Assembly: GCF_003044305.1 (NCBI RefSeq)
Contig: NZ_PZOX01000005.1
Location: forward strand, 579,493-643,492
DNA from: Vitiosangium sp. GDMCC 1.1324
GTDB lineage: Bacteria; Myxococcota; Myxococcia; Myxococcales; Myxococcaceae
DNA length: 64,000 nucleotides
Direction of reading: 5' to 3'
The position numbers and the translations under genes are program-made. The stretch's first letter is position 1; each line of letters starts with the position of its first letter. This document shows positions 33,607-50,328 of this stretch, one piece after another. Below the pieces are notes generated by a model. The model did no database searches, had not been told where the DNA came from, and saw only the letters and a list, made by a program, of their open reading frames with translations.

Positions 33607-35829
33607 ATGCAACGAAGAGGAAACCATTGGAGCTCACTACTGGCGCCGTTGCTCGGCATCATGTTGTGGACGGGTTCCGCGGCGGGCGCGGACGCCAGGC
33701 ACGCGGAATGCCCACCGAAGCCGCTGGTGCCGGCCTCACGAGACACGATCTCGGCCAGCATGCTGAATGCGCTCGCGGTGCACCCGGATGGCACCGTCTG
33801 GGCCTGGGGCAACAACCAGGAGGGCCAACTCGGGGATGGAACCACCGAGACCCGGTACGCGCCGCAGCGGGTGAAGAATCTCTCGGACGTGGTGGCCGTG
33901 GCGAACGGCGAATTCCACAGCCTGGCACTGCGCCGGGACGGCACCGTCTGGGCCTGGGGCAACAACTCCTTCGGCCAGCTCGGCACCGGTCTGCCGGGAA
34001 GAAACCTCACTCCGGTCCAGGTTCCGGACCTGACGGATGTGGTCGCCATCGAGGCAAGTGCCTACTTCTCGCTGGCACTGCGCCGGGACGGCACCGTCTG
34101 GTCCTGGGGCGACAATGGCTACGGCCAGCTCGGTGATGGGACGAAAGACATGCGGTCCTCGCCCGTGCGGGTGCAGGGACTGGAGAACGTGGCGGACATC
34201 GCCGCCGGCTACCGCCACAGTCTGGCAGTGGACCAGGATGGCACCGTCTGGTCCTGGGGCCACAATGGCTCCGGCCAGCTCGGTGACGGGACGACCGCGC
34301 AGCGCAACACGCCCGCCCCGGTGCCGGGCCTGACGGACGTGGTCACCCTCGAGGCGGGAAACTTCCACTCGCTGGCACTGCGCCAGGACGGCACCGTCTG
34401 GGCCTGGGGCCACAATGGCTACGGCCAGCTCGGTGATGGGACGACCACGCAGCGCAACACGCCCGCCCCGGTGCCGGGCCTGACGAACGTGGTCACCCTC
34501 GAGGCGGGGGACTATCACTCGCTGGCACTGCGCCAGGACAGCACCGCGTGGTCCTGGGGCTTCAATGTCCTCGGCCAGCTCGGTGATGGGACGACCACTC
34601 ATCGCAACACGCCCGTACAGGTCTCGAAGCTCGAGGACGCGGTGGCCATCGGCGCGGGCAGCAACCAATCGCTGGCCATGCGCGCCAATGGCACCCTGTT
34701 GGGCTGGGGAGACAACTCCATGGGCCAGCTCGGGACGGGCTCCAACTTCCGAGACACCCCCGTGCGGCTCAAGGCCGTGAAGCATGGAGTGACCGCCTCG
34801 CTCACCCTCCATGCCCTCGTGCTGCGCGAGGATGGCACCGTGTCGTCCTGGGGCTTCAACCTCGATGGCCAGCTCGGGGATGGGACGAAGTCCACGCGCG
34901 CCGAACCGGGACAGGTGCTCGGTATCGCGGACGCGGTCGCCGTGGAGACCGCGAGGTCCAACTCGTTCGTGCTGGGCTCGGACGGCACCGTGTGGGCCTG
35001 GGGCAGCAACTCCTCCGGCCAGCTCGGGGATGGAACGCGCACCTCCCGGATCACCCCCCTGCCCGTGCAGGGATTGACGAACGTCACCGCCCTGACGAGC
35101 AATGGGGATCATGTCCTGGCGTTGCGCCAGGATGGCACGGTGTGGAGCTGGGGCGGCAACACCGCTGGCCAGCTCGGAAACGGAACGACGAGCCCCAGTC
35201 TCACGCCCGCCCAGATCCAGGGCCTGTCGGACATCGTGGCCGTCGCGTCCGGCTCCTTCCGCTCGATGGCGCTGCGCCGCGACGGCACCGTGTGGGCCTG
35301 GGGCGCCAACAACTTCGGCCAGAACGGAGACACAACGACGAGCCGCCATCTCACGCCCGTCCAGGTCCAGGGTCTGTCGGACGTCGTGGCCATCGCGACC
35401 GACTACGGCCACTCGCTGGCGCTGCACGCCGATGGCACCGCGTCGGCCTGGGGCTACAACAACTATGGTCAGCTCGGGGACACGTTGGAGACCAGCCGAA
35501 GCATCCCGGCACGAGTACCGGGCCTGACGAACGTGTCGAGCATCGCCGTGGGGAGCCTGCACAGCCTGGCACTGCGCGAGGATGGGACCGTCTGGGCCTG
35601 GGGCTACAACGGGTATGGCCAGCTCGGTGATGGAACCCTGGCGCCCCGGCACATGCCAGCACCCGTCCCGGGGCTGAAGCACATGAGGGCCATCGCAGCG
35701 GCTGGCGACAACTCCCTGGCCATCCGCAAGAATGGCGAGCTGTTCAGCTGGGGGAGCAACTGGTTCCTCACGATTGGAGATGGAGTGGGCTTCGCCCACA
35801 CCGTCCCGGCGCCTGTGCTGATGCCATAG
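33607..35829 (+). CDS. secreted RCC1-repeat (beta-propeller) protein
   Basis: Signal peptide, then about 14 tandem ~50-aa RCC1 repeats (DGTVWAWGNNxxGQLGDGTT...). About 150-bp periodicity is visible in the DNA (ctggcactgcgcc[gag]ggacggcaccgtctgg recurring). Confidence 0.85.
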   Translation: MQRRGNHWSSLLAPLLGIMLWTGSAAGADARHAECPPKPLVPASRDTISASMLNALAVHPDGTVWAWGNNQEGQLGDGTTETRYAPQRVKNLSDVVAVANGEFHSLALRRDGTVWAWGNNSFGQLGTGLPGRNLTPVQVPDLTDVVAIEASAYFSLALRRDGTVWSWGDNGYGQLGDGTKDMRSSPVRVQGLENVADIAAGYRHSLAVDQDGTVWSWGHNGSGQLGDGTTAQRNTPAPVPGLTDVVTLEAGNFHSLALRQDGTVWAWGHNGYGQLGDGTTTQRNTPAPVPGLTNVVTLEAGDYHSLALRQDSTAWSWGFNVLGQLGDGTTTHRNTPVQVSKLEDAVAIGAGSNQSLAMRANGTLLGWGDNSMGQLGTGSNFRDTPVRLKAVKHGVTASLTLHALVLREDGTVSSWGFNLDGQLGDGTKSTRAEPGQVLGIADAVAVETARSNSFVLGSDGTVWAWGSNSSGQLGDGTRTSRITPLPVQGLTNVTALTSNGDHVLALRQDGTVWSWGGNTAGQLGNGTTSPSLTPAQIQGLSDIVAVASGSFRSMALRRDGTVWAWGANNFGQNGDTTTSRHLTPVQVQGLSDVVAIATDYGHSLALHADGTASAWGYNNYGQLGDTLETSRSIPARVPGLTNVSSIAVGSLHSLALREDGTVWAWGYNGYGQLGDGTLAPRHMPAPVPGLKHMRAIAAAGDNSLAIRKNGELFSWGSNWFLTIGDGVGFAHTVPAPVLMP

Positions 35830-35843
35830 CGGCGGAGCGCCAG

Positions 35844-35883
35844 GGCCACACCGGAGGGGCAGGCAGCCTCCCCCGGTGTGGCC
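35844..35883 (+). terminator. candidate terminator hairpin after RCC1 gene
   Basis: Perfect 11-bp inverted repeat ggccacaccgg ... ccggtgtggcc with an 18-nt loop. Confidence 0.4.
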
Positions 35884-35929
35884 CGCCGCCCCCATTGACG
35901 GCAAGGGGCATCCGGCCGAGAGTCGGCCC

Positions 35930-37954
35930 GTGATTCTCCCCCTGGTGGCCGCCCTCGTGGTGAGCCAGCCGATCGACCCCCAGCAGCCCGGCGCGGGCGT
36001 CCCCAGTCCGGACGTCGTCGGGCCATCCATCTCCGAACCCACCCCTCCCCCGGCCCCGCCCGAGCCCGAGGAGACCGACCGGCGCAAGCAGACGGTCGTC
36101 ACCTCCTCGCGCGCCGAGCGCAAGCTGGAGGACGCGGTGGTGGCCACCGAGGTCATCACCCGCAAGCAGATCGACGCCGTCGGCGCCAGGGATCTGGGTC
36201 AGCTCCTCCAGCAACACCCGGGTGTGGAGCTCGTCCACAACTTCCGGGGCACCGGCCTGCGTCTGCAAGGTTTGGATCCGGAGTACGTGCTCGTGCTCGT
36301 CGACGGCGAGCGCGTGAGCGGCCGCGTGGGCACCACGCTCGACCTGGGACGCTTCAACCTGCGCGACGTGGAGCGGGTGGAGATCGTCAAGGGACCGGCG
36401 GCGGCGCTCTACGGTGCGGACGCCATCGGCGGCGTGGTGAACCTCATCACCCGCCGCGTGCAGCGCCCGCTGGAGCTCGACGCCCGGGGCTCGTTCGGCA
36501 CGTTGTTGGAAGGTGACTTCCGCGCGAACGCCGGCACGAAGCAGGGTCCCTTCGAGGTGCGCGTGGGCGGCGGCTACCGCACCCGCAACCCCTACGACTG
36601 GGTGCCCGCGGACGCGGCGACGAGCGGCGCGGGCCTCCAACGGGTCGATGGGGATGTGGCCCTCGCCTATGCGCCGGACGAGCGCTCCCGTCTGTGGCTG
36701 CGCAGCCAGTACAACCTGCGCAACGAGAACGCCGTCGATCTCAACCCCTCGGGCGCCGTGCTCGACCGGCGGCAGCGGCAGGAGCAGTTCGACGTCTCGC
36801 TCGGCGGAGGAAAGCAGCTCGCCGGCGGCACCTCGCTGCTCGTCCGGGGACACTTCGGCCTGTTCCGCGAGCAGCTCCTGCAGGACCAGCGCGGCTCGCG
36901 GGCGCTCGACGACTACTCGCAGAACTTCACCCGGCTCTACGAGGGCGTCGCCCAGGCAGATCACCACCTGGGCGACCACACGCTCACCGGTGGCATCGAA
37001 GTGCTCGGCGAGCGGCTCACGTCCATGCGGCTCGAGCAGAGCCCCGTGAGCCGCATCCGGGGCGGTGCCTTCCTCCAGGACGAGTGGGATGTGGCGCTGT
37101 CCTCGGACGGCTCGGGGCCGAAGCTCAAGGTGGCGCCGGGCTTCCGCTTCGACCTGGACTCTCAGTTCGGCGGAGCACCTTCACCTCGGCTCGCCATCAA
37201 GCTGGACACCAGCCCCGCCCTCACGGTGCGCGCCTCGGTGGGACTCGGGTTCCGCCCGCCGTCCTTCCAGGAGCTGTACCTGCGCTTCTCCAACCCGGGC
37301 ATCGGCTACATCGTCGCGGGCAACCGCGACCTCCAACCCGAGCACTCGGCGGCGGTGAACGTCGGCGTGGACTGGCGCCCGCCCATCGACGGGTGGCTCC
37401 TCTCCGCGAGCGGCTTCCACACCCGGCTCAACAACCTCATCAACGTCACCGCCACCGGCGAGCCCAACCCGGATGATCCGGTGACCTACAACTACGAGAA
37501 CGTGGCCCGGGCGTACACGCAGGGCTTCGAGCTCAACGGGCGCTTCCGCCTGCCCGTGCGCTCGACGTACCTGGACCTGGGGTACATGTTCCTCGACGCG
37601 AAGGACCTCACGCGCGACCGCCCGCTGGAGGGCCGCTCGCGGCATCGCGTCAACGCGCAGCTCTCCACGCGCTACCGACCGCTCGACCTCGAGGCCACCG
37701 TGCGCGGCTCGTGGGTGAGCGGCCGGCCGTACTACCTCGGCTCGGATGGCGGCATGGCCAACGTGCTCGGCTTCGGCGAGGAGCAGCGGGTGTGGTCGCC
37801 CGCGTATTTCGATCTCGAGGCCAAGGTCGCCTACCGGCTGCGCAGCGGGTTCGAGGTCTTCGTCAACGGCTACAACCTGCTCAACGCGGGAGACCAGCAG
37901 TTCAACCCGCGGCCGCCGCGAGGCGTGCTGGGCGGCGTCCAGTGGGAGTACTGA
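35930..37954 (+). CDS. TonB-dependent outer-membrane receptor (start uncertain; ORF opens at 35876)
   Basis: Plug domain (...VVTSSRAERKLEDAVVATEVITRKQIDAVGARDLGQLLQQHPGVEL...; IVKGPAAALYGADAIGGVVNLITR). Beta-barrel ends ...GVQWEY (C-terminal aromatic). The GTG at 35876 lies inside the upstream hairpin, so the GTG at 35930 is preferred. Confidence 0.8.
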   Translation: MILPLVAALVVSQPIDPQQPGAGVPSPDVVGPSISEPTPPPAPPEPEETDRRKQTVVTSSRAERKLEDAVVATEVITRKQIDAVGARDLGQLLQQHPGVELVHNFRGTGLRLQGLDPEYVLVLVDGERVSGRVGTTLDLGRFNLRDVERVEIVKGPAAALYGADAIGGVVNLITRRVQRPLELDARGSFGTLLEGDFRANAGTKQGPFEVRVGGGYRTRNPYDWVPADAATSGAGLQRVDGDVALAYAPDERSRLWLRSQYNLRNENAVDLNPSGAVLDRRQRQEQFDVSLGGGKQLAGGTSLLVRGHFGLFREQLLQDQRGSRALDDYSQNFTRLYEGVAQADHHLGDHTLTGGIEVLGERLTSMRLEQSPVSRIRGGAFLQDEWDVALSSDGSGPKLKVAPGFRFDLDSQFGGAPSPRLAIKLDTSPALTVRASVGLGFRPPSFQELYLRFSNPGIGYIVAGNRDLQPEHSAAVNVGVDWRPPIDGWLLSASGFHTRLNNLINVTATGEPNPDDPVTYNYENVARAYTQGFELNGRFRLPVRSTYLDLGYMFLDAKDLTRDRPLEGRSRHRVNAQLSTRYRPLDLEATVRGSWVSGRPYYLGSDGGMANVLGFGEEQRVWSPAYFDLEAKVAYRLRSGFEVFVNGYNLLNAGDQQFNPRPPRGVLGGVQWEY

Positions 37955-37961: not shown

Positions 37962-38597
37962 ATGCGGATGCGAATACACGAGACGGTGCTGCTGCTCGGG
38001 CTCGCGGTGGCGGGCTGCGCTCCGGACCTGCGCGAGGACTACCCGTTCGACGGCCAGGCCACCACCGGGCAGCTCGTCGAGGTGACGGCGCAGGAAGACG
38101 GGAGCCGCGTCGCCATCATCGACGCGACGAACAAGTCCGCCACGGTCTTCTTCGACATCGACGAGGGCCGCGAAATGAAGGTCGACGAGGCCTTCGACAC
38201 CAACGGGTGGGATCTGTCCTTCCAGCGCTACGTCATCACGATGAACGGTGGAGGCGGCAACCCGACGGGTGAGGTGCAGGTCGCGGTGCTCGAGGGCGAG
38301 AGCTGGGACGCGCTTACGACGGCCCCAACCCAGGGCTATCAGCAGGACGCCTCGGAGCCGGTGTTCAGCGGCGTCGAGGGCGGCTGGTACGCCTACGACA
38401 TCGTCCAGCACAAGCTCGTCACCCGCGACGGGCTGCTGTACGTGGTGCGCAGCAGCCGCGGGCAGTTCTTCAAGCTGCAAATGCTCTCGTACTACGACAG
38501 CGCTGGCACCCCGGCGCGTCTGTCATTTCGCTACCAACAATTGCAGCGCCCAACCATTGCAACCACCACCAATGGCATACCAACAATGACAGACTGA
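37962..38597 (+). CDS. HmuY-like lipoprotein
   Basis: Lipobox LLLGLAVAGC. Immediately downstream of the TonB receptor; size and beta-rich composition fit HmuY-type haem-binding proteins. The 3' end runs through an AT-richer palindromic element. Confidence 0.6.
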   Translation: MRMRIHETVLLLGLAVAGCAPDLREDYPFDGQATTGQLVEVTAQEDGSRVAIIDATNKSATVFFDIDEGREMKVDEAFDTNGWDLSFQRYVITMNGGGGNPTGEVQVAVLEGESWDALTTAPTQGYQQDASEPVFSGVEGGWYAYDIVQHKLVTRDGLLYVVRSSRGQFFKLQMLSYYDSAGTPARLSFRYQQLQRPTIATTTNGIPTMTD

Positions 38598-38675
38598 GCG
38601 TCACGAAATTGTTTCAGCGCGAGGGGCCCGGCCGGCACTACATCGCCGCGCATCTTCATCTCGGAGCCCCCCACC

Positions 38676-39899
38676 TTGAAACGAAGCACCCTCGTCGTCC
38701 TCGCTACACTCGCATCGAGCGCCGCGCTGGCGCAGGCCACCGACACCTCCACCGCGTCCGCTCCGGCCACCCAGCCGCAGGAGACGGCGCCCACCTCCCC
38801 CACCGGCGCGCAGTTGCCGCCTCCGGAAAAGACGGAGTCGGGCAAGGACACCACGACCACCAAGCCCGAGGCCAAGGCCACGAGCTGGACCGAGCGCGTG
38901 AAGCTGTCGGGCAAGGCCTACCTCCGCTACTCCTACGAGCTGGACGGGCCGTCCAAGAACGCCAACCAGTTCGCGCTCGATCGGCTCTACCTCCAGGGCG
39001 AATACCAGCTCACCGACAACTCGCGCTTCCAGGTGACGCTGGACGCCGGTGACACCCGCAACAGCGGCACCAACAGCGTCTTCTTCGCCGAGGCCAAGTA
39101 TGTCTTCCTCGAGTTGAAGAACCTGCTCGGCGCGGGCTCGTGGTTGCGCGCGGGGATGATCCCGCTGGCGTGGGTGCCCTACGCGGAGGACTTGTGGGGC
39201 TACCGCTTGCAGGGCCCCGTGGCGCTGGACCGGTTCGGCTACATCGCCTCGTCGGACCTGGGCCTGGCCCTGGGCGGTGCACTGCCTTCCAAGCACGGCA
39301 GCTGGCAGGTCAACGTGAACAACGGCGAGGGATTCCGGGTCGCGGAGATCGCCAAGCGCAAGGAGGTCCAGGCGCGCCTCACGCTCAATCCGCTCGCCTC
39401 GATGGGTGGACTGGCCGCCGGCCTCTTCGTCACCGGGTACGGCTCCTATGGCGAGTACGACGACGCGGGACTCGGAGCGCGCGTGAAGAGCCGGGTCATC
39501 GGCGAGATCGGGCTCCAGAGCCAGCCGCTCACCCTGGCGGCCGACTACTTCGTCGTCCGCGACTCCCAGCCCAAGGTGAGTGGCCGCTTCACGGTGGGGC
39601 CCGAGAGCATCGTGCACGGCCAGGGCCTCAGCGTCTTCGGCGTGCTCAACGTGGGGGCATTCGCTCCGGCCGTCAGCGGGCTCGACCTGCTGGCCCGCTA
39701 TGATCTGCTGGATCCCGACACGACGCTCGACCACAACGACACCCGGGTGCTCATCGCTGGCGTGGGCTACCGGTTCAACGGCTTCGTCAAGGGACTGGTC
39801 GACTACGAAAGCCAGGGCTACGGCGCCGACGTCGGCGGCCCCGGTACCCACAAGCCCACGGAGAGCCGCATCAAGCTCCAGACCGAAGTGCGGTTCTGA
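38676..39899 (+). CDS. outer-membrane beta-barrel (porin-like) protein
   Basis: TTG start at 38676 (MKRSTLVVLATLASSAALAQA signal peptide). Alternating amphipathic beta-strands. C-terminal ...TEVRF (terminal Phe). Confidence 0.6.
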   Translation: MKRSTLVVLATLASSAALAQATDTSTASAPATQPQETAPTSPTGAQLPPPEKTESGKDTTTTKPEAKATSWTERVKLSGKAYLRYSYELDGPSKNANQFALDRLYLQGEYQLTDNSRFQVTLDAGDTRNSGTNSVFFAEAKYVFLELKNLLGAGSWLRAGMIPLAWVPYAEDLWGYRLQGPVALDRFGYIASSDLGLALGGALPSKHGSWQVNVNNGEGFRVAEIAKRKEVQARLTLNPLASMGGLAAGLFVTGYGSYGEYDDAGLGARVKSRVIGEIGLQSQPLTLAADYFVVRDSQPKVSGRFTVGPESIVHGQGLSVFGVLNVGAFAPAVSGLDLLARYDLLDPDTTLDHNDTRVLIAGVGYRFNGFVKGLVDYESQGYGADVGGPGTHKPTESRIKLQTEVRF

Positions 39900-39908
39900 A
39901 GCGCGGTT

Positions 39909-40247
39909 CTAATGGCCCTGCGCAGGCGGGGGCTCCTGCTTCAGCGGCACTGGAGGCACGGGAGTCCCCGCCCCCGAGCCCCCGCTGCCCGAGCCCTCGC
40001 CGCCCGAACCCGAAGGCACCTCGGGCAGGGGCCAACCGAAGAAGAGTGGCCACCCCCGGTAGACGTCTGGAGAGACTCCCGTTGGCTGGGAAGCCTGTGG
40101 GCTCCCTGGCACGGCCTGAGCCTGGGGAACTGGCGCGTGGGCTGAAGCCTTCTGCACCTCGGGAGGTGTCCGCACCAGGACGTAGATGAGGATCACGCTC
40201 AGCAGGCTCAGCGCCACGATGCTCCACGCGCGCACTCTCTCGTCCAT
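39909..40247 (-). CDS. small membrane-anchored Pro-rich protein
   Basis: 112 aa. One TM helix (WSIVALSLLSVILIYVLV), then a Pro/Gly/Ser-rich tail. Confidence 0.4.
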   Translation of the reverse strand: MDERVRAWSIVALSLLSVILIYVLVRTPPEVQKASAHAPVPQAQAVPGSPQASQPTGVSPDVYRGWPLFFGWPLPEVPSGSGGEGSGSGGSGAGTPVPPVPLKQEPPPAQGH

Positions 40248-40270
40248 CCCAACGTCTCCGGCGCACTCCG

Positions 40271-42091
40271 TCAGAACTGCCCTCTCTGCAACACGTCACT
40301 CTTGGAAACCGTCCCCAGCAGGCGCCGGTCGCGATCCACCACGGGCAAGCGCTCGAGCGTCGTCTTCCCGAAGCTCCTGGCCACCTCGGCCAGGGAGAAG
40401 CTCGGGGTGATGACGGGCACGTTCACGTCCATCACGTCCGCGGCTACCGTGGCCTCCAGAAGGGTGTGGTCCGGCAGGTGCCCCTTGAGCGCATCGAGCA
40501 CGATGACCCCCAGCAGACGGCCCTGCGAATCCGTGACGTAGAGGTCCGCACCAGGAGGCTGCTCGAGCAGCAGCACCACCACCTCCTGGAAGGGCGCCGA
40601 GGGGTTGATCCGCTGTTCCACGGGCTTCAACAAGGCACGGGCCCCCTCCTCGCGCAGCCACTGGGGGACGGTCGCGGGCATCCGCACGTTGCGGCGGTTG
40701 AGCACCGAGGTGTAGAGCGACTCTGGCTCCAGCCAGCGGCTCACCACCGCGGAGATCACCGCGCAGAGCATCAACGGGAGGATGAGATCGTAGTCCGCCG
40801 TCATCTCGAAGATGAGGAGCACGGAGGACACGGACGCATGCGTCGTGCCCGCGAGCACGGCCACCATGCCCAGCAGCGCATAGGCCCCACTCGGAGCCCC
40901 ACCGGGCCACAGCACCCCGACCCCCGCTCCGAAGGCGCCTCCCAGCAGGGCACCGTAGAAGAGTGACGGGGTGAAGAGACCACCAGGAACGCCCGCGCCC
41001 GCGCACAACGATGTGGCCAGGAGCTTCGCCAGCGGGAGCATCGCGAGCAGGAGCAACGGCATCTTCCCGAGCAGCGCCGCGTTCACCGAGTCGTAGCCGT
41101 TACCGAGGAGATACGGCAGCCAGATGGCGGCCAGGCCCACCAGGCTCATGGCCACCAGGGGCAGGAAGGGCTGGAGCCAGTCGGGTGCCCGGGCCAGGCT
41201 GTCGGACAGCAGATTGATGCCACGCACGTAGAGGGCGGAGGCGGCTCCCATCAGCACGCCCAGCAGGAGCGCGAGCATCAATTCGCGCGGGTGTGTCAGC
41301 ACGTAGTGCGGGATGACGTAGATGGGACGGTCGGCGACGAAGGCGCGCGACACGAGCGTCGCGACCACGCAGGAGACGACGATGGGGCCGAACAGCTCGA
41401 GCGCGAAGCTGCCCAGCAACACCTCGAGTCCGAAGAGCGCGGCCCCGATGGGGGCGTTGTAGGCGGAGGCGATGCCCGCCGCGGCCCCACACGCCACCAG
41501 GAGGCGAGCCTGCCCCGAGGGGAGCCTCAACCGATGGGCGAGAGCGGAGCCGCTGGCGGCCCCCGTCGAGAGGAGCGCACCCTCGCGGCCCAGCGGCGCC
41601 CCCAGTGCCACCGCGATGATCGACACGAAGCCCCGGAAGAGCGCTCGCAAGAGAGACAGGCGGCCCGCCTTCACCCAGATGGACTCGATGATGCCCGCGG
41701 TCCCATGCCCGCGCAGGGGTTGCCCGACGAGCAGGGTCATCAGGGACACGAGCGCTCCGCCCAGCACCGGCACGAGGAAGCGGCGCCAGGGGGGTGAGGC
41801 GATGACGCCCGCGAGGAACCCCTCCACCTCGCTGCGCCAGAAGAGGTGCTGGGTGAAGCGGAGCACCTTGAGGAGCACCACCGCTCCCAGGCCAGAGATG
41901 AGGCCCACCGCGACGACGAGCCCCCAGAAGCGATTCTCCGCCCTTGCCAGGCCGCGCAGGATGCCGCCAAGCGGGGGAGATGTGCGCCGGGGGAGCTCCG
42001 CCTCGGGAAACGAAGTCGTCCGCTCGGAGGGGTGCTCGGAGTGGTGAAGGATGCCCACGCCACAGGAAGGTAGGAAGCGCGCTCGGGACAT
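40271..42091 (-). CDS. ClC-family voltage-gated chloride channel with C-terminal CBS pair
   Basis: ATG at 42091 (MSRARFLPSCGV...) within ORF 40271..42148. GREGAL, GAPIGAALFGLE and LFTPSLFYGALLGGAF are ClC selectivity/gating motifs. The C-terminus has two CBS-like repeats. Confidence 0.85.
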   Translation of the reverse strand: MSRARFLPSCGVGILHHSEHPSERTTSFPEAELPRRTSPPLGGILRGLARAENRFWGLVVAVGLISGLGAVVLLKVLRFTQHLFWRSEVEGFLAGVIASPPWRRFLVPVLGGALVSLMTLLVGQPLRGHGTAGIIESIWVKAGRLSLLRALFRGFVSIIAVALGAPLGREGALLSTGAASGSALAHRLRLPSGQARLLVACGAAAGIASAYNAPIGAALFGLEVLLGSFALELFGPIVVSCVVATLVSRAFVADRPIYVIPHYVLTHPRELMLALLLGVLMGAASALYVRGINLLSDSLARAPDWLQPFLPLVAMSLVGLAAIWLPYLLGNGYDSVNAALLGKMPLLLLAMLPLAKLLATSLCAGAGVPGGLFTPSLFYGALLGGAFGAGVGVLWPGGAPSGAYALLGMVAVLAGTTHASVSSVLLIFEMTADYDLILPLMLCAVISAVVSRWLEPESLYTSVLNRRNVRMPATVPQWLREEGARALLKPVEQRINPSAPFQEVVVLLLEQPPGADLYVTDSQGRLLGVIVLDALKGHLPDHTLLEATVAADVMDVNVPVITPSFSLAEVARSFGKTTLERLPVVDRDRRLLGTVSKSDVLQRGQF

Positions 42092-42144
42092 GCCTGCCCT
42101 CACGCTCTTCCGCCCGCCCCCCGAGGGAGCACCCCGGGCCCGTC

Positions 42145-42960
42145 TCACGGCTGCCGGGACGTGGCTCCAAGGAGCGCCTGCCGCACCGCCGCGCGCACGG
42201 GCCCGGGCACCTCGTCACCCGGGATGCGCCGGCACAAGGACACCGTGCGCTTGAGGGCCTCACAGGCCTGGGCACATCGCGGACAGCGCGACAGGTGTTC
42301 CTCGATGCGCACGCAGGTGGCTTGATCGATCTCCTGGGCCGCGTACTCCGAGAGTTCCTGGGAAAGCTCCGGACACCCGGGACCGGCCACCTGCCGCTCG
42401 TCACCCAGGAGGGTGGCCAGGTGCTCTCGAAGCTGGAGGCGCGCCCGGTGCAACCGGCTCTTGAGGGCCCCCACTTCGATTCCCACCACACGCGCGGCCT
42501 CCTCGGCGGAGAGGCCCTCCACGTCCCGGAGGATGAGCACCTCGCGGAGGCTCTCGGGCAACGCGGCCATGGCCGCCTGCAACACCTCTCCCATCTGCCT
42601 GGCGTGCGAGACCTCGTCGGGCGTGCTCCGCTCGGAGGGAACGAGGTTCGCGGCGGGCGAGTCGAGCGGCTGGAAGTCCTCGGGAGCCCCCACCCGCCGG
42701 CGCCGCAAGCGCGAGCACCAGGTGCGCGCCACCAGGTAGAGCCAGGTGGACAGCTCCGCCTCCCCTCGGAAGGAGTGGAGCCCTCGGAAGGCGGCCAGCA
42801 ACGTCTCCTGGAGGACCTCCCTGGCGTCCTCCTCCGAGCCGCACATGCGCAGCCCGAACCGGTACACCTGATGCTCGTGCCGGGCGAGCAGCTCGTCCAG
42901 CGCCTTCTCGTCTCCGGCCCTCGCAGCCTCCATCAGCTCCACATCCGTCCTGCCTGCCAT
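42145..42960 (-). CDS. ECF sigma factor fused to ZAS-type (HxxxCxxC) anti-sigma-like zinc domain
   Basis: ATG at 42960 (MAGRTDVELMEAARAGDEKALDELL...) is preferred; the ORF extends to 43665 through a Pro/Arg-rich leader. Sigma-70 regions 2 and 4 (...EDAREVLQETLLAAFRGLHSFRGE...; ...LREVLILRDVEGLSAEEAARVVG...). C-terminus EHLSRCPRCAQAC. Confidence 0.75.
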   Translation of the reverse strand: MAGRTDVELMEAARAGDEKALDELLARHEHQVYRFGLRMCGSEEDAREVLQETLLAAFRGLHSFRGEAELSTWLYLVARTWCSRLRRRRVGAPEDFQPLDSPAANLVPSERSTPDEVSHARQMGEVLQAAMAALPESLREVLILRDVEGLSAEEAARVVGIEVGALKSRLHRARLQLREHLATLLGDERQVAGPGCPELSQELSEYAAQEIDQATCVRIEEHLSRCPRCAQACEALKRTVSLCRRIPGDEVPGPVRAAVRQALLGATSRQP

Positions 42961-43168
42961 CGTGCCCTTCCCTCGTCTCGGACGTCTCTCATCCTGGCCC
43001 GGTTCGGGGTGATGAATCCTTTTCGCAGGCTCCTGGCTCTCACAGGGCAGAGACCTGAACGATGATTTTCCGCCAGCTTTTCGACCCCGAATCCTCCACC
43101 TGACCAGGCGCCATTGTGATGCGCATCCCTCGACCCCCTCATCCCTCAACCCCCTCAGGTGGCATCGA

Positions 43169-43594
43169 ATGACCCCGATGGTATTTCCCCTCCTGGGAGG
43201 CGCCCTCCTCGGGCTGAGCGCCTCCCTCTTGCTGCTCTTCAACGGCCGTGTCGCTGGCATCAGCGGCATCGCTGGCGGGCTGCTTCCCCCCACGCGTGGA
43301 GAACTCGGCTGGCGGCTGGCGTTCCTCGCGGGCCTCGTGGCCGGAGGCCTGTTGCTGCGCGTCCTCTGGCCCGCGTCGCTGGAGTCCTCCGCCCGCCCCG
43401 GAGCCATCGGGTTGGTGGTGGCGGGCCTGCTCGTCGGCTTCGGCACGCGGCTGGGCAGCGGCTGCACCAGCGGCCACGGAGTGTGCGGACTGGCCCGTGG
43501 CGCCACACGTTCCCTCGTGGCCACCCTCACCTTCATGGCAACGGGGGCCCTCACCGTCTTCGTCGTGCGCCACGTGCTGGGAGGTGGCCAGTGA
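43169..43594 (+). CDS. YeeE/YedE-family (DUF395) membrane protein, half 1
   Basis: 141 aa; four TM helices. [12 protein letters not shown] is the conserved-Cys motif of YeeE/YedE sulfur transporters. Confidence 0.8.
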
Positions 43595-44070
43595 AGGCCG
43601 TGTGGACCGCGGGAATCGCCGGGCTCCTCTTCGCCCTGGGTCTCGGGCTGGGCGGCATGACGCAACCCTCCCGGGTGCTGGGCTTCCTGGACGTGACGGG
43701 GGCGTGGGATCCCTCACTGGCCTTCGTCATGGCGGGCGCGCTCGGCGTGCACGCCGTCCTCCAACGCCTCATCCGCCGCCGGAAGGCGCCCGTGCTGGCC
43801 GCCCACTTCCCTGCCATCTCCCGAACGCGAGTGGACGGGCGCCTCGTCACCGGGGCCGCGCTGTTCGGCGTGGGCTGGGGGCTCGCCGGTTACTGCCCGG
43901 GCCCCGCCTTCACCGCGCTGGCGACCGGCGGCAGGGAGGCAGTGCTGTTCACCCTCTCCATGCTGGGCGGGATGCTCCTCTTCACGGCGTGGGAGCGCGC
44001 CTCGGCTCCGGTCCCGGATGCCGCGGGCAGGGAGGTGCGGCACGCCACCGCGAGCGACAACGGGCGGTAG
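43591..44070 (+). CDS. YeeE/YedE-family (DUF395) membrane protein, half 2
   Basis: GTG start overlapping the upstream stop (GTGA). [13 protein letters not shown] motif. Confidence 0.7.
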
Positions 44071-44101
44071 CGGGAGGGCCACGGCTGGCGCTCTGCGCCA
44101 C

Positions 44102-46228
44102 TCAACCGGCCGGTGCACTCACCGGAGGGCGCTGTTGCACCGGAGCGACGACCTGTGGCGGGCGCTGCCTCACGGCATCGAGGTCCTGCACCAGGCGCCG
44201 GTACAGCGCGCTCCGGCCGAGCCGGATGTCACGAGCGGCCCCCTGGACGGGGACGAAGTGCCCCTTGCCTCCCTTGAAGAGCCGGGCGAAGGGGTGCGGC
44301 AGCCGCCGGAGCTCTTCCAGGTCCGAGTGGAGGGTCCGCTCCAGGGCGTCCGGCGAATCGGCCCGGATGGAGCCGACGAGCGACATCAACTCGCGCGCCA
44401 CCTGCCGGCTGGCGGCGGTCTCTCCTTCGGCCAGCTCATCCGATAGCTGACGGGCCGCGGTGTACTCGTCATAGAGGGCATCCAGGTTCTGGCGGAGCGT
44501 GGCCATGAGGGTCCGCCAGACCTCGGTCTCCGGCAGAGCCCCGGTCGGATCCGCGCGCGTGCGGACGGCCGCGAGCACGCGCTCGGTGGTGGTCGCGTCG
44601 AGCTGCTCCTTCACCCCGCCCGGGCTGGAGCCCTCGAATGCCGCGACGACGGGGGAGGTGTCGATGGTGAGGGACGCGGGCGCCTGGCCGACACCGCGTG
44701 AGCAGACGGCCTCGAGCGTCATACGCAGCGCGGGCTCCGCGACGGGCTCGCCACGACACAGGCCCTGCTCGCGGCACGCATCCAACAGCTCGCCCCGCTT
44801 GCGCCCGAGGCTCGCCACCAACGACTCGATGGAGGGCAGACCCCCACAGCGCAGAGGGTGCGGCAGGTCGTCCGCGTCGAAGGCACATGCCGGAGCGGCG
44901 CCGAGGAAGGCCTGGGAGGCCCGCTGGAACCGCTCGCGCAGCTCGCGCTCCTGCTTGCAGGACGACGGGCCCCCGACGGGCAATGACGCCAGGGTCTCCA
45001 GCTCCCGCCGGTACTTCACGAGCGCCTCGCCAAGCGCGAAGAGGTCGGACCGGGGCTTGCTCTCGAGCACGGCCCGCGCCGTCCGACAGGGGAGGCTCTC
45101 GACAGGGAGCTGGGTGTCGCCGCGCCCGCAGACCTCCCCGTGGATGCTCGCCAACTCGTACACCCGCACCGCCATCTCCTCCCGTCCGAGTTCCGACTGG
45201 AGACGCTCGAGCGCATTGCGCAAGCGCAGGAAGCGCGGCTGATGGGCCGCGGCGAGCCCCTCCACCGGACAGCGCTCCGCGAGCCCCGGCTTCCCGCTCC
45301 AGGCGCCTTGCTCCAGCGCCGCCGCGCACTCCCGGGAGAACACCGTCGCCGGCAGCGGCTCCACCTGGAGGCGCGCGAACACGGCGAACTCCGGATAGCG
45401 GCTGCCGCTCGCGCTCACACGGAGCTGGCCGTCCCGCACCTCGTGCGTGGAGGCGAAGTCCTCGGCGGAACCATCCGCCTCCGTCACCACCACCACCTGC
45501 GAGCCCAGCACCCCACCGCAAGTCAACGGACTGTCCCGGCACGCCTGGAGCCGCTTCAGGACGAGGGGCTGACCGAGCTGCTCGTCCGTCTGTTCGATCC
45601 ACGCCAGCGCGCGGTCCGACGACTTCTTGAAGCCATCCCCCGCTTCGTCGCCCATCACGCCCGTGATGGCGCCCCTGGCCCTCGCCGTCGCGGCTCCCAG
45701 CAGATCCTCGAAGAGCTGTCTGCCGAACGAGGGAAGCAGCGCCACACCGATGGAGATCTCCACGTGGTCATCCACCGGCATCGGAGCCGAGATGGGAATG
45801 CCGAAGCGCGCCGCCACGGGCCCTTGCGCCGAATCGGCCCCGGCCAGGCGCACCTCGGCCTTCTTTCCGTCCTCCCCCGTGGGCTCGATAGCCACTCCAC
45901 GCCCCTGCTCGTCCACGAGCAGGTACGCCTTGCGGGACTGCCCCCCGGCGCTCACCACCACGGTGATCTTCTGCACGGAGTTGAAGATCAGCCGCCAGGG
46001 CAGTCCGCGCGCGGCGGGCTCCTGGAAGCCGAGTTCGACCGAGGCGTAGAGCGGCATCCCGGCGGGGAAGGTGACCTGCTTCAGCTCGCGCGCCGTGGCG
46101 TGCCGCCAGTCCAGGGTATCCAGTGCCTTCGCCTCGGGACGGAGGGTCAGGGCCACCACACCGGCGCGGGCCTGACTACAGACCAGAAGGCTCGCGACCA
46201 GGAGGTAGCGGATCAACGGATGGCGCAT
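44102..46228 (-). CDS. large secreted Cys-containing hypothetical protein (~709 aa)
   Basis: ATG at 46228 (MRHPLIRYLLVASLLVCSQARA, signal peptide) within ORF 44102..46318. No recognised domain. Multiple Cys pairs. Confidence 0.65.
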   Translation of the reverse strand: MRHPLIRYLLVASLLVCSQARAGVVALTLRPEAKALDTLDWRHATARELKQVTFPAGMPLYASVELGFQEPAARGLPWRLIFNSVQKITVVVSAGGQSRKAYLLVDEQGRGVAIEPTGEDGKKAEVRLAGADSAQGPVAARFGIPISAPMPVDDHVEISIGVALLPSFGRQLFEDLLGAATARARGAITGVMGDEAGDGFKKSSDRALAWIEQTDEQLGQPLVLKRLQACRDSPLTCGGVLGSQVVVVTEADGSAEDFASTHEVRDGQLRVSASGSRYPEFAVFARLQVEPLPATVFSRECAAALEQGAWSGKPGLAERCPVEGLAAAHQPRFLRLRNALERLQSELGREEMAVRVYELASIHGEVCGRGDTQLPVESLPCRTARAVLESKPRSDLFALGEALVKYRRELETLASLPVGGPSSCKQERELRERFQRASQAFLGAAPACAFDADDLPHPLRCGGLPSIESLVASLGRKRGELLDACREQGLCRGEPVAEPALRMTLEAVCSRGVGQAPASLTIDTSPVVAAFEGSSPGGVKEQLDATTTERVLAAVRTRADPTGALPETEVWRTLMATLRQNLDALYDEYTAARQLSDELAEGETAASRQVARELMSLVGSIRADSPDALERTLHSDLEELRRLPHPFARLFKGGKGHFVPVQGAARDIRLGRSALYRRLVQDLDAVRQRPPQVVAPVQQRPPVSAPAG

Positions 46229-46310
46229 GAGATCCCTCGGGGGAGCAAGAGGGGGGAACGACCCTTTCCCCAACGGACGTGCCGCTACTTTATTCACTCG
46301 AGCCGCCCGC

Positions 46311-46742
46311 TCACTCACCCTTGCCGAGCACGAAGGACAGGAGCAGGAGGCAGAGCACCCCGAACGTCACCGCCATGAAGAGGCGGTCGCGCTGACGACC
46401 AAAGACGAGGAGTGAGAGGGCTACACGGACAACCGGTGTGGCGATCAACACCATCAGTCCCACCATCACCAAGGCCTGCCCCCGGATGGCCTCCACGCCC
46501 GCGAGCACGTCCGAGAGCGAATGAGGCGCATGCTCCGGGGCGGTGAGACGCCGGAGGGCCTGCGCGGAGGAGAAGTAGTCGGGGTGGTGGAAGAAGGTCA
46601 CCACCATGCCGACGGACACCAGCGAGAGGCTGAGCACCACGCCGAAGCGCAGCAGGTTGCTGATGAGCAGCTCGGGGCCCGTGGACTCGCGAGCCAGTTC
46701 CGGCGCGGTGGATTTCGCCTGGACGGTGGAAGGCTCGCTCAC
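46311..46742 (-). CDS. DUF1634-like small membrane protein
   Basis: GTG at 46742 (VSEPSTV...). Three TM helices (...LLRFGVVLSLSLVSVGMVVTFF...; ...ALVMVGLMVLIATPVV...; ...FMAVTFGVLCLLLLSF...). Confidence 0.55.
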   Translation of the reverse strand: MSEPSTVQAKSTAPELARESTGPELLISNLLRFGVVLSLSLVSVGMVVTFFHHPDYFSSAQALRRLTAPEHAPHSLSDVLAGVEAIRGQALVMVGLMVLIATPVVRVALSLLVFGRQRDRLFMAVTFGVLCLLLLSFVLGKGE

Positions 46743-46890
46743 GAGCTCGGCCCCTTGCGCGGCATGATCGAGGTCACATCCTTCTCCCTGGCCCGGCGAG
46801 GTGCAAACTCCGCGCACCCTCGCCGAGCCCGCCTGTCTGCTCCAGTCCGGTAGAGGACAAGGCCCGCCCTGGAGCGAAGCCGGCCCGACC

Positions 46891-48789
46891 TCAGGCCTTG
46901 GGTTCGGGCGCGGGCAGGGACGGGTTCATCCCCTGGGAACTGGCCACCAGCATGCGCCCGAGCAGCGCCTCCGTCAGCCCGCCGCTGCCCGCCCCGCCCA
47001 CGGCGATGTCCGGCACCAGCTTCACGTGGTGCTCGCCCAGGATGCTGGCCACCTGCACCGCGGTGTAGGCCGTGGGGCCCAGGGCCTCCTGGCCCTGACG
47101 GTGGGCCTCGGCCTTCGCGGAGCCCACCTTGAGCACCAGCTCCGACTCGGCCTCGGCCCGGGCGGAGCCCACCCTGCGCACCGACTCGGCCTCCGCCTCC
47201 GCCTTCGCCAGGCCCACCATGCGCACCGACTCGGCCTCCGCCTCCGCCTTCGCCCTCACCGACGCCGCATCACCACGAGCCGACTCCACCTGCGCCCGAG
47301 CGTTCTGCTCGCTGATGCGCACCTGCTGCTCGCTGCGCACCACCTCCGCCTGGATGTTGGCGATGGCCAGCTCGCGCTGCAGATCCTGCCGCTTCATCTC
47401 CGCCAACCGCTGCACCTCGTAGGTGCGCTGCAGCTCCTCGGCGATCTTCCGGTCCGTCTGCGTCTTCATCAGCTCCGCGGGCGGCACGATGTCGCCAATG
47501 AGCGTGTCGATGCACTCCACGTCATACGCCTGGATGGCCTTCTTGATGGCCTCGAAGGCCTGCTTCTGCCGCTCGCTGCGCGCGGAGAGGAACTCCAGCA
47601 CCGTCACCTCCTGCGCCGAGTTGCGGAAGTAGTTGCCCACCGTGGGCTGGAGCACGTGGTCCACCAGGTTCTGCATGCTGCCCACCCGCGAGATGACGCG
47701 CGGCGCGTTCTTCACGCCGATGTGGATGATCTGCGACACGTCCAGGCTGAAGCTGAACCCATCCTTGCTGCGCACCAGGATGCTGGAGAGCTTGTCGTCG
47801 TAGTGGTGCGCCTCCGTGCGGTTGGCCCAGTTGAGAACGATGTTGGTGGTGGGCACCAGCTCCACCTTCATCACCCGCATGTTGAGCGGGTGCTTGCCGG
47901 GCAGCAGCGGCTCCACCCACACGCCCTTGTGCCCGCGCTCCACCAGGTCTCCGTGCGTGAACGCGTCACCGGACACGTCCACGTGCTCGCTGCCCACGTA
48001 GGACACCACCACGCCCACGTAGCCGATGGGAATCTCCGTCAGGGAGATGAGCTCCACCTGCACGAACCACGGGTTGAGGTTCCACGAGCCCGACATCAAC
48101 ACCTCCTCCTGGAGGCCACGGCAGCCGCCCGCGTCGATGAAGGCCTGCGGGCTCTGGAAGCTGTCATGGCGCGCGGCCACGGGGCCGGCCAGGTCACCCG
48201 GAGGCACCGGCTTGCCGTCCAGCACCGTGACGATGCCCACGCGATCCGGCGGCACCTGGAAGACACGGAGCTGGGCCGGGTGCATGCCGTGCTTCTCCGC
48301 GTTGGCGCTCCTCACCACCTCGAAGAGCGCGGGGTTGATGCGGTAGTGGCCCGCGGTGAGGAAGCCGCTCTGCCGGCCGCGCTCGCCCTCGTTGGAGAGG
48401 AACGCCTCCGCGTCCTGGTAGTTGTCGCACTCCACCTCGCGCCCGAGGATGCGCTCGCTGGGCAGCGGCGCGCCGTCCTTGGCCACCACGAGCGCCACCT
48501 CTCCCTGCGGGACGATGATGAGCGGCACTCGCTCCACCTTGTACTGCCAGCGCCACAGGCCGTAGTGCCAACCCGGAGGCAGCATCCGCGCCTGGTAGCC
48601 GGCCTCGCCCGAGCGGGCGATGAGCCGCCCCGGAGGCAGCGGCCGCCCGAAGCGCCGGATGACGAGCCCGGACTCGCCCTCGCGGATGACCCAGGTGCCA
48701 AGCATGAAGATGACCCAGAACGTCACGCCGGACAGCAGCAGCAACGCCGCGCCGACGAACAGGGGATGGGTCGGGATGAAGTCGAACAT
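46891..48789 (-). CDS. SPFH/band-7 (flotillin-like) membrane protein
   Basis: ATG at 48789 (MFDFIPTHPLFVGAALLLLSGVTFWV, TM anchor), preceded by gaaaggaaa. SPFH domain, then a long EA-rich coiled coil with AEAEAESVR repeats. The ORF extension to 49302 is rejected. Confidence 0.8.
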   Translation of the reverse strand: MFDFIPTHPLFVGAALLLLSGVTFWVIFMLGTWVIREGESGLVIRRFGRPLPPGRLIARSGEAGYQARMLPPGWHYGLWRWQYKVERVPLIIVPQGEVALVVAKDGAPLPSERILGREVECDNYQDAEAFLSNEGERGRQSGFLTAGHYRINPALFEVVRSANAEKHGMHPAQLRVFQVPPDRVGIVTVLDGKPVPPGDLAGPVAARHDSFQSPQAFIDAGGCRGLQEEVLMSGSWNLNPWFVQVELISLTEIPIGYVGVVVSYVGSEHVDVSGDAFTHGDLVERGHKGVWVEPLLPGKHPLNMRVMKVELVPTTNIVLNWANRTEAHHYDDKLSSILVRSKDGFSFSLDVSQIIHIGVKNAPRVISRVGSMQNLVDHVLQPTVGNYFRNSAQEVTVLEFLSARSERQKQAFEAIKKAIQAYDVECIDTLIGDIVPPAELMKTQTDRKIAEELQRTYEVQRLAEMKRQDLQRELAIANIQAEVVRSEQQVRISEQNARAQVESARGDAASVRAKAEAEAESVRMVGLAKAEAEAESVRRVGSARAEAESELVLKVGSAKAEAHRQGQEALGPTAYTAVQVASILGEHHVKLVPDIAVGGAGSGGLTEALLGRMLVASSQGMNPSLPAPEPKA

Positions 48790-48933
48790 GGGGGGACGTT
48801 TCCTTTCGGGTGTTGCCCACCGGAAGTGCATCCGCCCTGCCAAAGCCAACCCCTTGGATTTCCTCGGGCCGCGCTCGCGCTCCAGCGTCTGGACCGAATT
48901 GGATTTCGGTTCGGCCGGTGTTCCAATGACGCC

Positions 48934-50274
48934 ATGGCCACCATCCTCTGGGAGGGCGCTGCCCCTCCGCCCTCGCTGTCCGCACAGCTCGCCGCCGAGG
49001 GCCACCAGCTCGTCACGAAAGGTGCCGCCGGGCTCTCCGTGGTGTGCACCGCCTCGGCCCGGGTGCCCTCGCCTTCCGCCACGGGCCTGCCATGGGTCTG
49101 GGCCTGCCGCACGCGCATCCCCTCCCTGCTCACCACCGAGGCGGCCCTGGCCGGAGCCTATGACTCGGTGTGGCTCGGCGCCGAGGACGGACCCCGCCGG
49201 CTGCTGGCCCGGCTCGCGGAGCTGGCCACCCCCGAGCCGGCTCCCGAGTCCGCGCCCACCTTCGTGGCCCGCAGCGCCGCGGCCCGCGCCACGCTTCATC
49301 AAATCGCCCGCGCCGCCCGCACCTCCCAGCCCGTGCTCATCACTGGAGAGACAGGCTCCGGCAAAGAGGTGACGGCGCGGCTGCTACACACCCTCGGCGA
49401 GCGCCGCGCCGGACGCTTCGTCCCCATCAACTGCGCCGCCATCCCCAACGAGCTGATGGAGGGAGAGCTGTTCGGCTACGCCAAGGGTGCCTTCTCCGGC
49501 GCCACGCGAGGCTTCGACGGGCAGCTCATGGCGGCCGAGGGCGGCACCGTGTTCCTCGATGAGATCGACGACACGCCCCTGTCCCTGCAGATGAAGCTGC
49601 TGCGCGTGCTGGAGGACCGGGTGGTGACGCGCCTGGGCGAGTCCGAGCCGAAGCAGGTGGACTTCCGCATCGTCGCCGCCACCAACAGGGATCTGCGCGA
49701 GCTCATCGCCCGGGGCGTCTTCGGCGCGGACCTCTACGAGCGCCTGGCCATCGTCAGCATCCAGCTCCCTCCGCTACGCGAGCGGTTGGAGGACCTGCCC
49801 GTGCTGCTCGAGCACTTCATCACCCGCTTCCAGCGCGAGGAGCCCTCCGCGCCACGAGGGCCGGTGCACGTGACCCCCGAGGCGCTCGCCGCGCTCGAGG
49901 CCTATCCGTGGCCGGGCAACATCCGCGAGTTGCGCAACGTCATCTTCGAGGTGCTCGTCTACAAGCGGGTGGGTGAGGAGATCCTCCCCTCGGACCTGCC
50001 GAAGCGAGTGCTGCGCCGGGGCGTGGAGCACGCGGCGAGCGGCGGCCGTGACGCGGCAGCCATGGGGCGAGCCATGGACGCGGGGAGCTTCAACCTGCGC
50101 GCGGAGGTGGAAGCCCTGGAGCGGCTGGCCCTGACGCTCGCCCTGGAACGAACCGGGGGCAATGCCTCGCGCTCTGCGGCGCTGCTGGGCGAGGTGGGCC
50201 GGGGCCGCTCCGCCGATCCGGGCGCCACCGTGCGCGCGATGATGCGCCGGTTCGGCATCTCCGGCCGCCGCTGA
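48934..50274 (+). CDS. sigma-54-dependent transcriptional activator (NtrC-family EBP) with degenerate N-terminal receiver-like region
   Basis: ATG at 48934. AAA+ sigma-54 interaction domain: GETGSGKE Walker A, GAFSGA (GAFTGA-like), ...GGTVFLDEI..., ...RVLEDR.... C-terminal Fis-type HTH (GNASRSAALLG). The N-terminal ~110 aa lack the phospho-accepting DD pair. Confidence 0.85.
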   Translation: MATILWEGAAPPPSLSAQLAAEGHQLVTKGAAGLSVVCTASARVPSPSATGLPWVWACRTRIPSLLTTEAALAGAYDSVWLGAEDGPRRLLARLAELATPEPAPESAPTFVARSAAARATLHQIARAARTSQPVLITGETGSGKEVTARLLHTLGERRAGRFVPINCAAIPNELMEGELFGYAKGAFSGATRGFDGQLMAAEGGTVFLDEIDDTPLSLQMKLLRVLEDRVVTRLGESEPKQVDFRIVAATNRDLRELIARGVFGADLYERLAIVSIQLPPLRERLEDLPVLLEHFITRFQREEPSAPRGPVHVTPEALAALEAYPWPGNIRELRNVIFEVLVYKRVGEEILPSDLPKRVLRRGVEHAASGGRDAAAMGRAMDAGSFNLRAEVEALERLALTLALERTGGNASRSAALLGEVGRGRSADPGATVRAMMRRFGISGRR

Positions 50275-50328
50275 GCGCTCGCGCCCCTTCCGGGGAACCA
50301 CCGGGCCAGCCCTTCGCATCTCCGGGAC

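Follow-up and report, generated by a model that had tools for sequence, protein, structure and literature searches.

Micro-duplications produced by replication slippage or template switching consist of new sequence tiled by direct and inverted copies of the DNA next to it, with joints at short microhomologies, and yield a short tandem array together with an inverted repeat. Other described systems can look similar, namely, miniature inverted-repeat transposable elements (MITEs), which are small, have perfect terminal inverted repeats and differ in composition from the host DNA; Pho-box-type operators (PhoB/PhoP), to which the present locus bears a likeness in having several units of 12-15 bp in the same orientation upstream of a gene for an outer-membrane porin-like protein; and Rho-utilisation (rut) regions and stem-loops resembling repetitive extragenic palindromes (REPs), resembled here by a weakly structured, A-rich stretch of ~80 nt, with more C than G, within a stable stem at the end of a cistron. 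These comparisons concern a 77-bp segment at the 3' end of the gene for an HmuY-family lipoprotein of Vitiosangium sp. GDMCC 1.1324 (Archangiaceae), which we analysed within a stretch of 64,000 nt (hereafter, the window; overall GC content, 69.2%). The segment is bounded by a perfect 10-bp inverted repeat and contains an array of the motif CCAACAATTGCA, and its last 39 nt can for the most part be tiled with copies, direct or inverted, of sequence from the 40 nt just before them. On balance, and leaning only slightly, we favor the view that the segment is a scar of local templated duplication, by slippage or template switching, without a dedicated function. Such a scar looks like an ordinary kind of mutation. 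The features of the gene end are the following:

37962..38597, + strand: HmuY-family lipoprotein gene (hmuY), 211 aa plus stop, matching PF14064 with E = 9.7e-14.
38518..38527, + strand: left arm of the 10-bp inverted repeat, GTCTGTCATT, inside codons 186-189 (R-L-S-F), conserved in orthologues.
38532..38546, + strand: repeat unit 1, TACCAACAATTGCAG, native Y-Q-Q-L-Q codons.
38548..38562, + strand: repeat unit 2, GCCCAACCATTGCAA, first half native, second half (ATTGCA) new.
38556..38594, + strand: lineage-specific rewritten segment, IATTTNGIPTMTD, 39 nt, codons 199-211, without counterpart in orthologues.
38564..38578, + strand: repeat unit 3, CACCACCAATGGCAT, matching unit 1 at 11 of 13 positions, without counterpart in orthologues.
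38578..38592, + strand: repeat unit 4, TACCAACAATGACAG, identical to 38532-38541 over its first 10 nt.
38585..38594, + strand: right arm of the inverted repeat, AATGACAGAC, reverse-complementary to 38518-38527 at every position.

The product of the open reading frame (ORF) is 100% identical to the annotated HmuY family protein of Vitiosangium sp. GDMCC 1.1324, whose entry comprises 1 member sequence from 1 contig. A set of 5.8 billion sequences yielded 71 homologues, the nearest of which, beyond the source's own protein, is 86% identical, and no closer relative of Vitiosangium with this gene was present in the databases searched. The orthologues are 195-205 aa long and end in …GTPARLSFRYQxLxAPTxAP (for example, …PTAAP) directly before the stop codon, whereas the Vitiosangium protein has the tail …GTPARLSFRYQQLQRPTIATTTNGIPTMTD, ending in …RLSFRYQQLQRPTIATTTNGIPTMTD; relative to the orthologues, three terminal residues differ and ten more follow. 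The added residues form an in-frame C-terminal extension encoded by codons 202-211 (38565-38594, exactly 30 nt), which is present in no other protein of the 5.8-billion-sequence set. In DNA alignments with two Archangium violaceum genomes, Melittangium boletus, Cystobacter fuscus, and an uncultured relative, homology can be followed base by base as far as ~38555; with the protein alignments included, it reaches codon 198 (…RLSFRYQQLQRPT) and is absent after 38556. The left arm coincides with the codons CGT CTG TCA TTT of the conserved R-L-S-F residues, the ~30 nt that follow it contain the conserved YQQLQ-PT codons and align base for base with orthologue DNA, and homology to the A/R-P-T codons of the orthologues (GCGCCCACC) covers the first half of unit 2 (CGCCCAACC). 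These alignments assign the left arm, together with the first 1.5 repeat units, to the native coding sequence. The occurrence of the HmuY protein on a single contig of a single genome would also fit an assembly or sequencing artefact in the draft genome, an explanation that we find scarcely credible, considering that the reading frame is kept, with the 30-nt extension in phase, that both flanks are collinear with those in relatives, and that no similarity to plasmid or vector records was detected.

The closest syntenic relative is represented by two soil contigs (L005 and L006), in which the genes for the TonB receptor, HmuY, and the porin are followed by PstS-like and permease genes; identity to the Vitiosangium proteins is 89.6% for the TonB receptor, 77.5% for HmuY, and 74.5% for the porin. 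In this relative, the HmuY tail reads …APTAKH before the stop codon and the spacer ahead of the porin gene is 130 bp long, both being GC-rich and free of the repeats. Because these contigs share the hmuY-porin adjacency but not the AT-rich segment, the remodelling is specific to the Vitiosangium lineage and separable from the adjacency.

A perfect 10-bp inverted repeat around 57 compositionally distinct nucleotides invites comparison with MITEs, and the original prediction, made from the letters of the window, took the segment for a miniature inserted element or a recruited structured RNA or terminator that had replaced the native C-terminus. An insertion bounded by the inverted repeat is ruled out by the homology of the left arm, and of the ~30 nt that follow it, to coding sequence of the orthologues. 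Replacement of the C-terminus thus holds for the last 13 residues in the orthologue alignment, but not in the form originally envisaged: the residues encoded by the first half of the segment are common to the orthologues, and the ten-residue extension is not. Unlike a MITE, the segment consists by half of native coding sequence, the displaced native 3' end is not present after the right arm, the sequences beside the arms (GCGCG to the left and TGAGC to the right) do not form a target-site duplication, and inverted repeats of this length occur at chance frequency. Furthermore, no second copy was found in the 64-kb window or in ~70 kb of related loci, a pattern built on the inverted-repeat termini had 0 matches in viral contigs, and BLASTN searches against plasmids and phages returned only chance matches (E≈1). 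The outcome that the original prediction had named as refuting it, a single-copy element whose C-terminal residues recur in orthologues, is thereby reached in part, the segment being single-copy within the sequence searched and its first half coding for shared residues. A two-unit pattern matched 23 loci in viral contigs, mostly over 30 nt, which we assume, the loci being uninspected, to be unrelated coding repeats. The three-unit degenerate pattern (CCAACNATNNCA…) produced at least 119 matches in a genome collection; the matches listed are all of the microsatellite type and from unrelated taxa, with no Archangiaceae among them. The literature searches on Vitiosangium and on MITEs in myxobacteria returned nothing relevant. 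The reading as a MITE, or another small mobile element bounded by terminal inverted repeats of 9-10 bp, is thus largely refuted, and we attach next to no probability to it.

The rewritten 39 nt contain several pieces of the sequence immediately upstream, namely, AATGACAGAC, the reverse complement of 38518-38527; TACCAACAAT, identical to 38532-38541; ATTGCA, identical to 38540-38545; and ACCACCAATGGCA, which matches 38533-38545 at 11 of 13 positions. When exact matches, on either strand, to the preceding 56 nt were tiled over the segment and the coverage was compared with that of 20000 shuffles, matches of k ≥ 6 covered 23 of the 39 nt, compared to a shuffle mean of 4.4, and only 34 of the 20000 shuffles performed as well (p≈0.002); with k ≥ 8, this number dropped to 6 of 20000 (p ~3e-4). 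In the same test, between 0 and 12 nt were covered in five orthologues.

Four degenerate repeats (nACCAACAATTGCAn) run head to tail, starting at 38532, 38548, 38564, and 38578 (spacing of 16, 16, and 14 nt), with a mutual identity of 73-87%. This direct-repeat array, which is absent from the original prediction, had no comparable counterpart in any of 20000 shuffles of the same 77 nt, and its 13-mer, with up to 2 mismatches allowed, occurs only at these four places in the window. Tandem Repeats Finder (TRF), run with a minimum score of 30, did not report the array, consistent with the stated limit of the program for copies less than ~70% alike. Because the periods of 16, 16, and 14 nt are not multiples of 3, the repetition exists at the level of DNA rather than protein. 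Unit 1, in which CAA CAA TTG stands where the orthologues carry CAG CxG CTG/TTG, is probably the seed of the array. Unit 3 differs from the seed by A→C and T→G changes, which fit later decay towards G+C, although the numbers are tiny, and the end of unit 4 contains the right arm of the inverted repeat. A 44-aa ORF (MTLSLSLLVCHWWWLQWLGAAIVG…) on the minus strand, antisense to the segment (38470-38604), arises from the CCA-rich repeats; its predicted product is hydrophobic and Trp-rich, and the ORF is probably fortuitous.

The inverted repeat on its own (GTCTGTCATT/AATGACAGAC; 57-nt spacer, total span of 77 bp) is of chance frequency: the window contains 18 perfect inverted repeats that are 10 bp or longer and have a loop of at most 100 nt, compared to 16.6±4.1 in block shuffles. 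Among these 18, this is the only one with AT-rich arms. The original prediction had described it as a perfect 9-bp repeat spanning 38510-38582; the sequence is indeed there, but ~10 bases from that position, with the 9-bp core located at 38519-38527 (TCTGTCATT) and 38585-38593 (AATGACAGA) and extendable to 10 bp. The compositional anomaly noticed at the same time is real, the GC content of the 75-77 bp segment being 48%, compared to 69.2% for the window, which places it among the lowest-GC 75-nt windows of the 64 kb. The GC content at third codon positions (GC3) falls from 0.92 in codons 1-184 to 0.50 in the last 28 codons, whereas it amounts to 0.81-0.89 in the last 27 codons of five orthologues. 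The two internal palindromes, CAATTG (38538-38543) and TTGCAA (38557-38562), are also present, and the ORF does run through the segment to a stop just outside, the TGA at 38595-38597 that immediately follows the right arm.

We propose that the native 3' end of this hmuY-family gene was remodelled in the Vitiosangium lineage through local templated DNA synthesis. Replication slippage or template switching at CCAMC and AAT microhomologies (joints CCAAC/CCACC and AAT) would have overwritten ~45-50 nt with 39 nt copied from the 40 nt just upstream. The sequence lost in this way would have run from the last three codons and the stop codon through a GC-rich spacer of ~36 nt to the left half of a box located upstream of the porin gene. 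Most of the new 39 nt would derive from the Y-Q-Q-L-Q codons, copied three times in direct orientation (in part imperfectly), and from the R-L-S-F codons, copied once in inverted orientation. One kind of event could thereby yield, at once, the four-unit array, the apparent terminal inverted repeat, and the 10-residue extension, which would end in a TGA adjoining the remnant of the upstream box. Much of the low G+C content of the new segment would result from amplification of an A-rich seed, and the segment is probably without a dedicated function. The consequences would be a lengthened lipoprotein tail, probably tolerated, and, between two cistrons, mRNA that is poor in G and rich in C and A. 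The data show where homology ends, that the repeats are non-random, and that local templates tile the new sequence; we infer slippage or template switching from one end product, and likewise infer that a single event or a few events took place and that the outcome was neutral. The locus differs from the described micro-duplications in offering one end product and neither intermediate alleles nor polymorphic ones.

Several observations weigh against the scar interpretation. The seed region (38517-38546) and position 38478 carry Vitiosangium-specific synonymous changes to A or T (CGT, TCA, TTT, CAA, and CAA in the seed region; CAA at 38478), compared to one such change in the preceding 110 nt, and about half of 10 consecutive codons end in A or T, against ~8% elsewhere in the gene. 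A binomial calculation puts the probability of this codon cluster at ~5e-4, a figure that is our own estimate rather than the output of a tool. Duplication leaves the A/T changes of the seed unexplained, and simple slippage does not normally produce clustered synonymous G/C→A/T changes in its template. Possible causes are mutagenic repair around the event, back-conversion from the copies, and selection for a function at the DNA or RNA level. In addition, the sense strand is poor in G, with 11 G in 78 nt (the joint lowest count in the window) and a C/G ratio at the 99.3rd percentile, and this depletion may stem from selection acting on the RNA. Divergence between the units amounts to 13-27%; if this means that the array is old, the persistence of 48% GC in a 69% GC genome would argue for constraint. 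The array is known from one genome only, which bears on both its conservation and the timing of the event. The searches for further copies covered the 64-kb window, the ~70 kb of related loci, and the viral, phage, and plasmid collections, the source genome being ~12 Mb in size. Finally, the alignment of the spacer and the box with those of the relatives is weak and not unique.

The genes flanking hmuY and the putative remnant of the box are the following:

35876-37954, + strand: TonB-dependent receptor gene, Plug and beta-barrel domains.
38597..38605, + strand: GAGCGTCAC, aligning (MAFFT) with the right half (GAACGTGAC) of the box found in relatives; overlaps the last base of the hmuY stop codon.
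38676..39899, + strand: gene for a porin-like outer-membrane protein, 407 aa with a signal peptide, beginning 78 bp past hmuY.

The 407-aa porin-like protein matches no Pfam family above the threshold, and its homologues show weak matches to Porin_O_P and Porin_4. In three relatives, the porin-like gene is preceded, at a distance of 70-95 nt, by a conserved box, (T)TTCGCGAACGTGAC… (L005:2546-2585, L007:786-825, and L009:3913-3952), and a similar box (TTCACGAACGTGTCAC, TTCGCGAACCTGTCAC) precedes the adjacent PstS-like genes (L005:3941-3956 and L007:2168-2183), making it a candidate shared operator, possibly phosphate-related. The box of the relatives has no better-than-chance match in the window. 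In Vitiosangium, its left half and the ancestral spacer are missing, according to a MAFFT alignment that is weak and has alternatives; on this alignment, the rewritten segment appears to have replaced everything from the last three codons through the stop codon and the spacer to the left half of the box. Scanning metagenomes for loci with porin homologues yielded nothing with a single-protein query, and an alignment query retrieved 2 loci (L129 and L130), with unrelated upstream regions.

The partial loss of the ancestral box makes a replacement operator conceivable, with the direct repeats and the inverted copy forming an array of binding sites, for example, for a response regulator, that would control the porin-like gene from inside the end of hmuY. 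The array is located 80-160 bp upstream of the porin start codon and abuts the remnant of the box kept upstream of the porin and PstS-like genes of the relatives (TTTCGCGAACGTGAC, TTCACGAACGTGTCAC), the synonymous sites have moved towards the array motif, and genes for an extracytoplasmic function (ECF) sigma factor and for a sigma-54 activator lie in the vicinity. The likeness to Pho-box-type operators extends to the linkage of the porin gene in the relatives to PstS-like ABC transporter genes, which follow it, and to the CTGTCAT sequence in both arms, which resembles a half-site of the Escherichia coli Pho box. However, direct repeats of the OmpR/PhoB type have ~11-bp phasing, unlike the 16/16/14 spacing observed here, and the two CTGTCAT copies are inverted and lie 67 bp apart. 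Pho-box-type repeats also take the place of a promoter's -35 element and are found again at further genes of the regulon. The array motif is unlike the box conserved in the relatives and occurs nowhere else in the 64 kb or the related loci. There is also no identified promoter for an operator to act on: a scan for a sigma-70-like promoter or -10 element found none, and 38300-38700 contains no acceptable match to the sigma-54 promoter (TGGCAC-N5-TTGC), whose GG-N10-GC core would be expected no more than ~200 bp downstream of the activator sites. Moreover, the array is missing from the closest relative that shares this gene order, and the units resemble copied coding sequence rather than an imported operator. 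Overall, we regard an operator as unlikely, although it is, with an RNA-level signal, one of the main rivals to the scar.

The segment could, alternatively, carry a signal at the RNA level, either a site of Rho-utilisation-like character or for an RNA-binding protein, or a long-range stem that stabilises the transcript or directs its processing between hmuY and the porin gene. Consistent with this possibility, the sense strand contains 11 G, compared to 27 C and 25 A, in 77-78 nt, whereas the equivalent region of L005 is not G-poor, and the lineage-specific synonymous changes are mostly G→A on this strand. Folding of the + strand predicts a 10-bp stem extended by 5 bp, with the UGA stop codon in a 3-nt bulge, that encloses two small hairpins. 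The stem of the inverted repeat, for which a fold had been suggested as a check, is predicted in both the minimum free energy and the centroid structures, and its predicted stability is modestly better than that of shuffles (z = -2.4 for 106 nt and z = -2.85 in a 261-nt context). Searches of Rfam 15 produced only chance-level matches (RF00043 with 16.3 bits against a gathering threshold of 55, and RF02571 with 15.3 against 380), and no intrinsic terminator was found on either strand of 38300-38800; the stem is not terminator-like either, with its AT-rich arms, 57-nt loop, and absence of a T-run, so that the recruited structured RNA or terminator suggested at the outset finds no backing. Ordinary coding regions of the window reach comparably high C/G values, a rut site requires no conserved 13-mer repeat, and there is no rut consensus with which to compare the segment. 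Unlike REP-like stem-loops, the segment is single-copy within the sequence searched and not intergenic, and a stem around a 57-nt loop is atypical of stabilisers. With modest z-scores and only one sequence, which leaves no covariation to evaluate, an RNA signal appears decidedly improbable. Reading the sequence for integron attC sites, REP/RAYT elements, variable repeats of diversity-generating retroelements (DGRs), NifA-type TGT-N10-ACA sites, and sites for integration host factor (IHF) revealed none of their defining features.

The gene order of ClpB, TonB receptor, HmuY, tetratricopeptide repeat (TPR) protein (minus strand), and acetyltransferase is conserved between Vitiosangium and A. violaceum. 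In A. violaceum, the hmuY and TPR genes are convergent and overlap by 34 bp, whereas in Vitiosangium ~11.8 kb (window 38562-50365), not present in the A. violaceum locus, separates the end of hmuY from the convergent TPR gene. This difference and the abrupt change of codon usage near the gene end could point to an attL-like junction, at which an integrated element or horizontally acquired DNA supplied a substitute 3' end for hmuY, and direct repeats beside a crossover site are reminiscent of arm-type integrase sites. However, the extra DNA has native G+C content and codes for the porin-like protein, a ClC/CBS channel, an ECF sigma factor with zf-HC2, unknown proteins, DUF1634, and a 1157-aa sigma-54 activator. 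No integrase, transposase, recombinase, or other mobile-element genes are present in 38.6-50.4 kb, a tRNA scan detected no tRNA in the extra ~11.8 kb, and the hmuY junction sequence is not repeated near its far end (~50.3 kb). The hmuY-porin adjacency is, furthermore, common to L005 and L006, which have no AT-rich segment. An integration junction is accordingly a very poor candidate, and an integrated mobile element was rejected for want of recombinase genes and a far-end repeat.

Two further observations concern genes of this neighborhood. The ECF sigma factor is encoded by a single 506-aa ORF (42148-43665, minus strand) in which ECF sigma regions 2 and 4 (residues ~235-420) precede a zf-HC2 anti-sigma motif (431-465); the ~230-residue N-terminal part has no domain match, and either a fused sigma/anti-sigma protein or a mis-set start is possible. 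Between the ClpB and TonB receptor genes, and missing from the syntenic A. violaceum locus, lies a gene (33708-35780) with eleven to thirteen in-frame 150-nt repeats encoding …DGTVWAWG.N..GQLGDG…, the product being a putative RCC1-like repeat protein.

The clustering of synonymous A/T changes and the G depletion possibly leave room for a regulatory reading of the array alongside the scar interpretation. The array would then be a newly evolved cis-acting element, either an operator array for a regulator of the porin gene or a G-poor RNA signal, accommodated in synonymous sites and in the extended tail, a proposition that we consider distinctly unlikely. If it were true, the element would replace the half-destroyed ancestral box and offer a snapshot of regulatory rewiring through local templated duplication overlapping a coding sequence; the segment would be a modestly interesting regulatory innovation within coding sequence only if the array proves to be bound or processed. 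As a duplication scar, the segment has little importance beyond this locus. It illustrates clearly, though in one genome, how a local templated duplication can imitate a MITE, extend a C-terminus, and erase part of the upstream region of a neighbor, and it calls for caution in sequence-only scans: an inverted repeat that surrounds an AT-rich patch in GC-rich DNA does not speak for mobility before orthologous "empty sites" have been checked.

Additional repeats were observed elsewhere in the window. The other lowest-GC stretches (~48-52% GC per 75 nt) fall within a tandem duplication of a ~2.5-kb unit at 56409-60345 (85-94% identity), each unit encoding, on the minus strand, proteins of 230/262 aa and 564/565 aa that match no Pfam family. 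Long arrays of 75-nt and 63-nt repeats occupy a GC-rich region at 10200-12850 and, read on the minus strand, would encode a large repeat protein, possibly a coiled coil, a guess drawn from the periodicity alone. At the right edge of the window (63766-64000), a Met/Pro/Gly-rich coding repeat (GMNPMMGGMPMP…) with periods of 36-42 nt continues past the window end.

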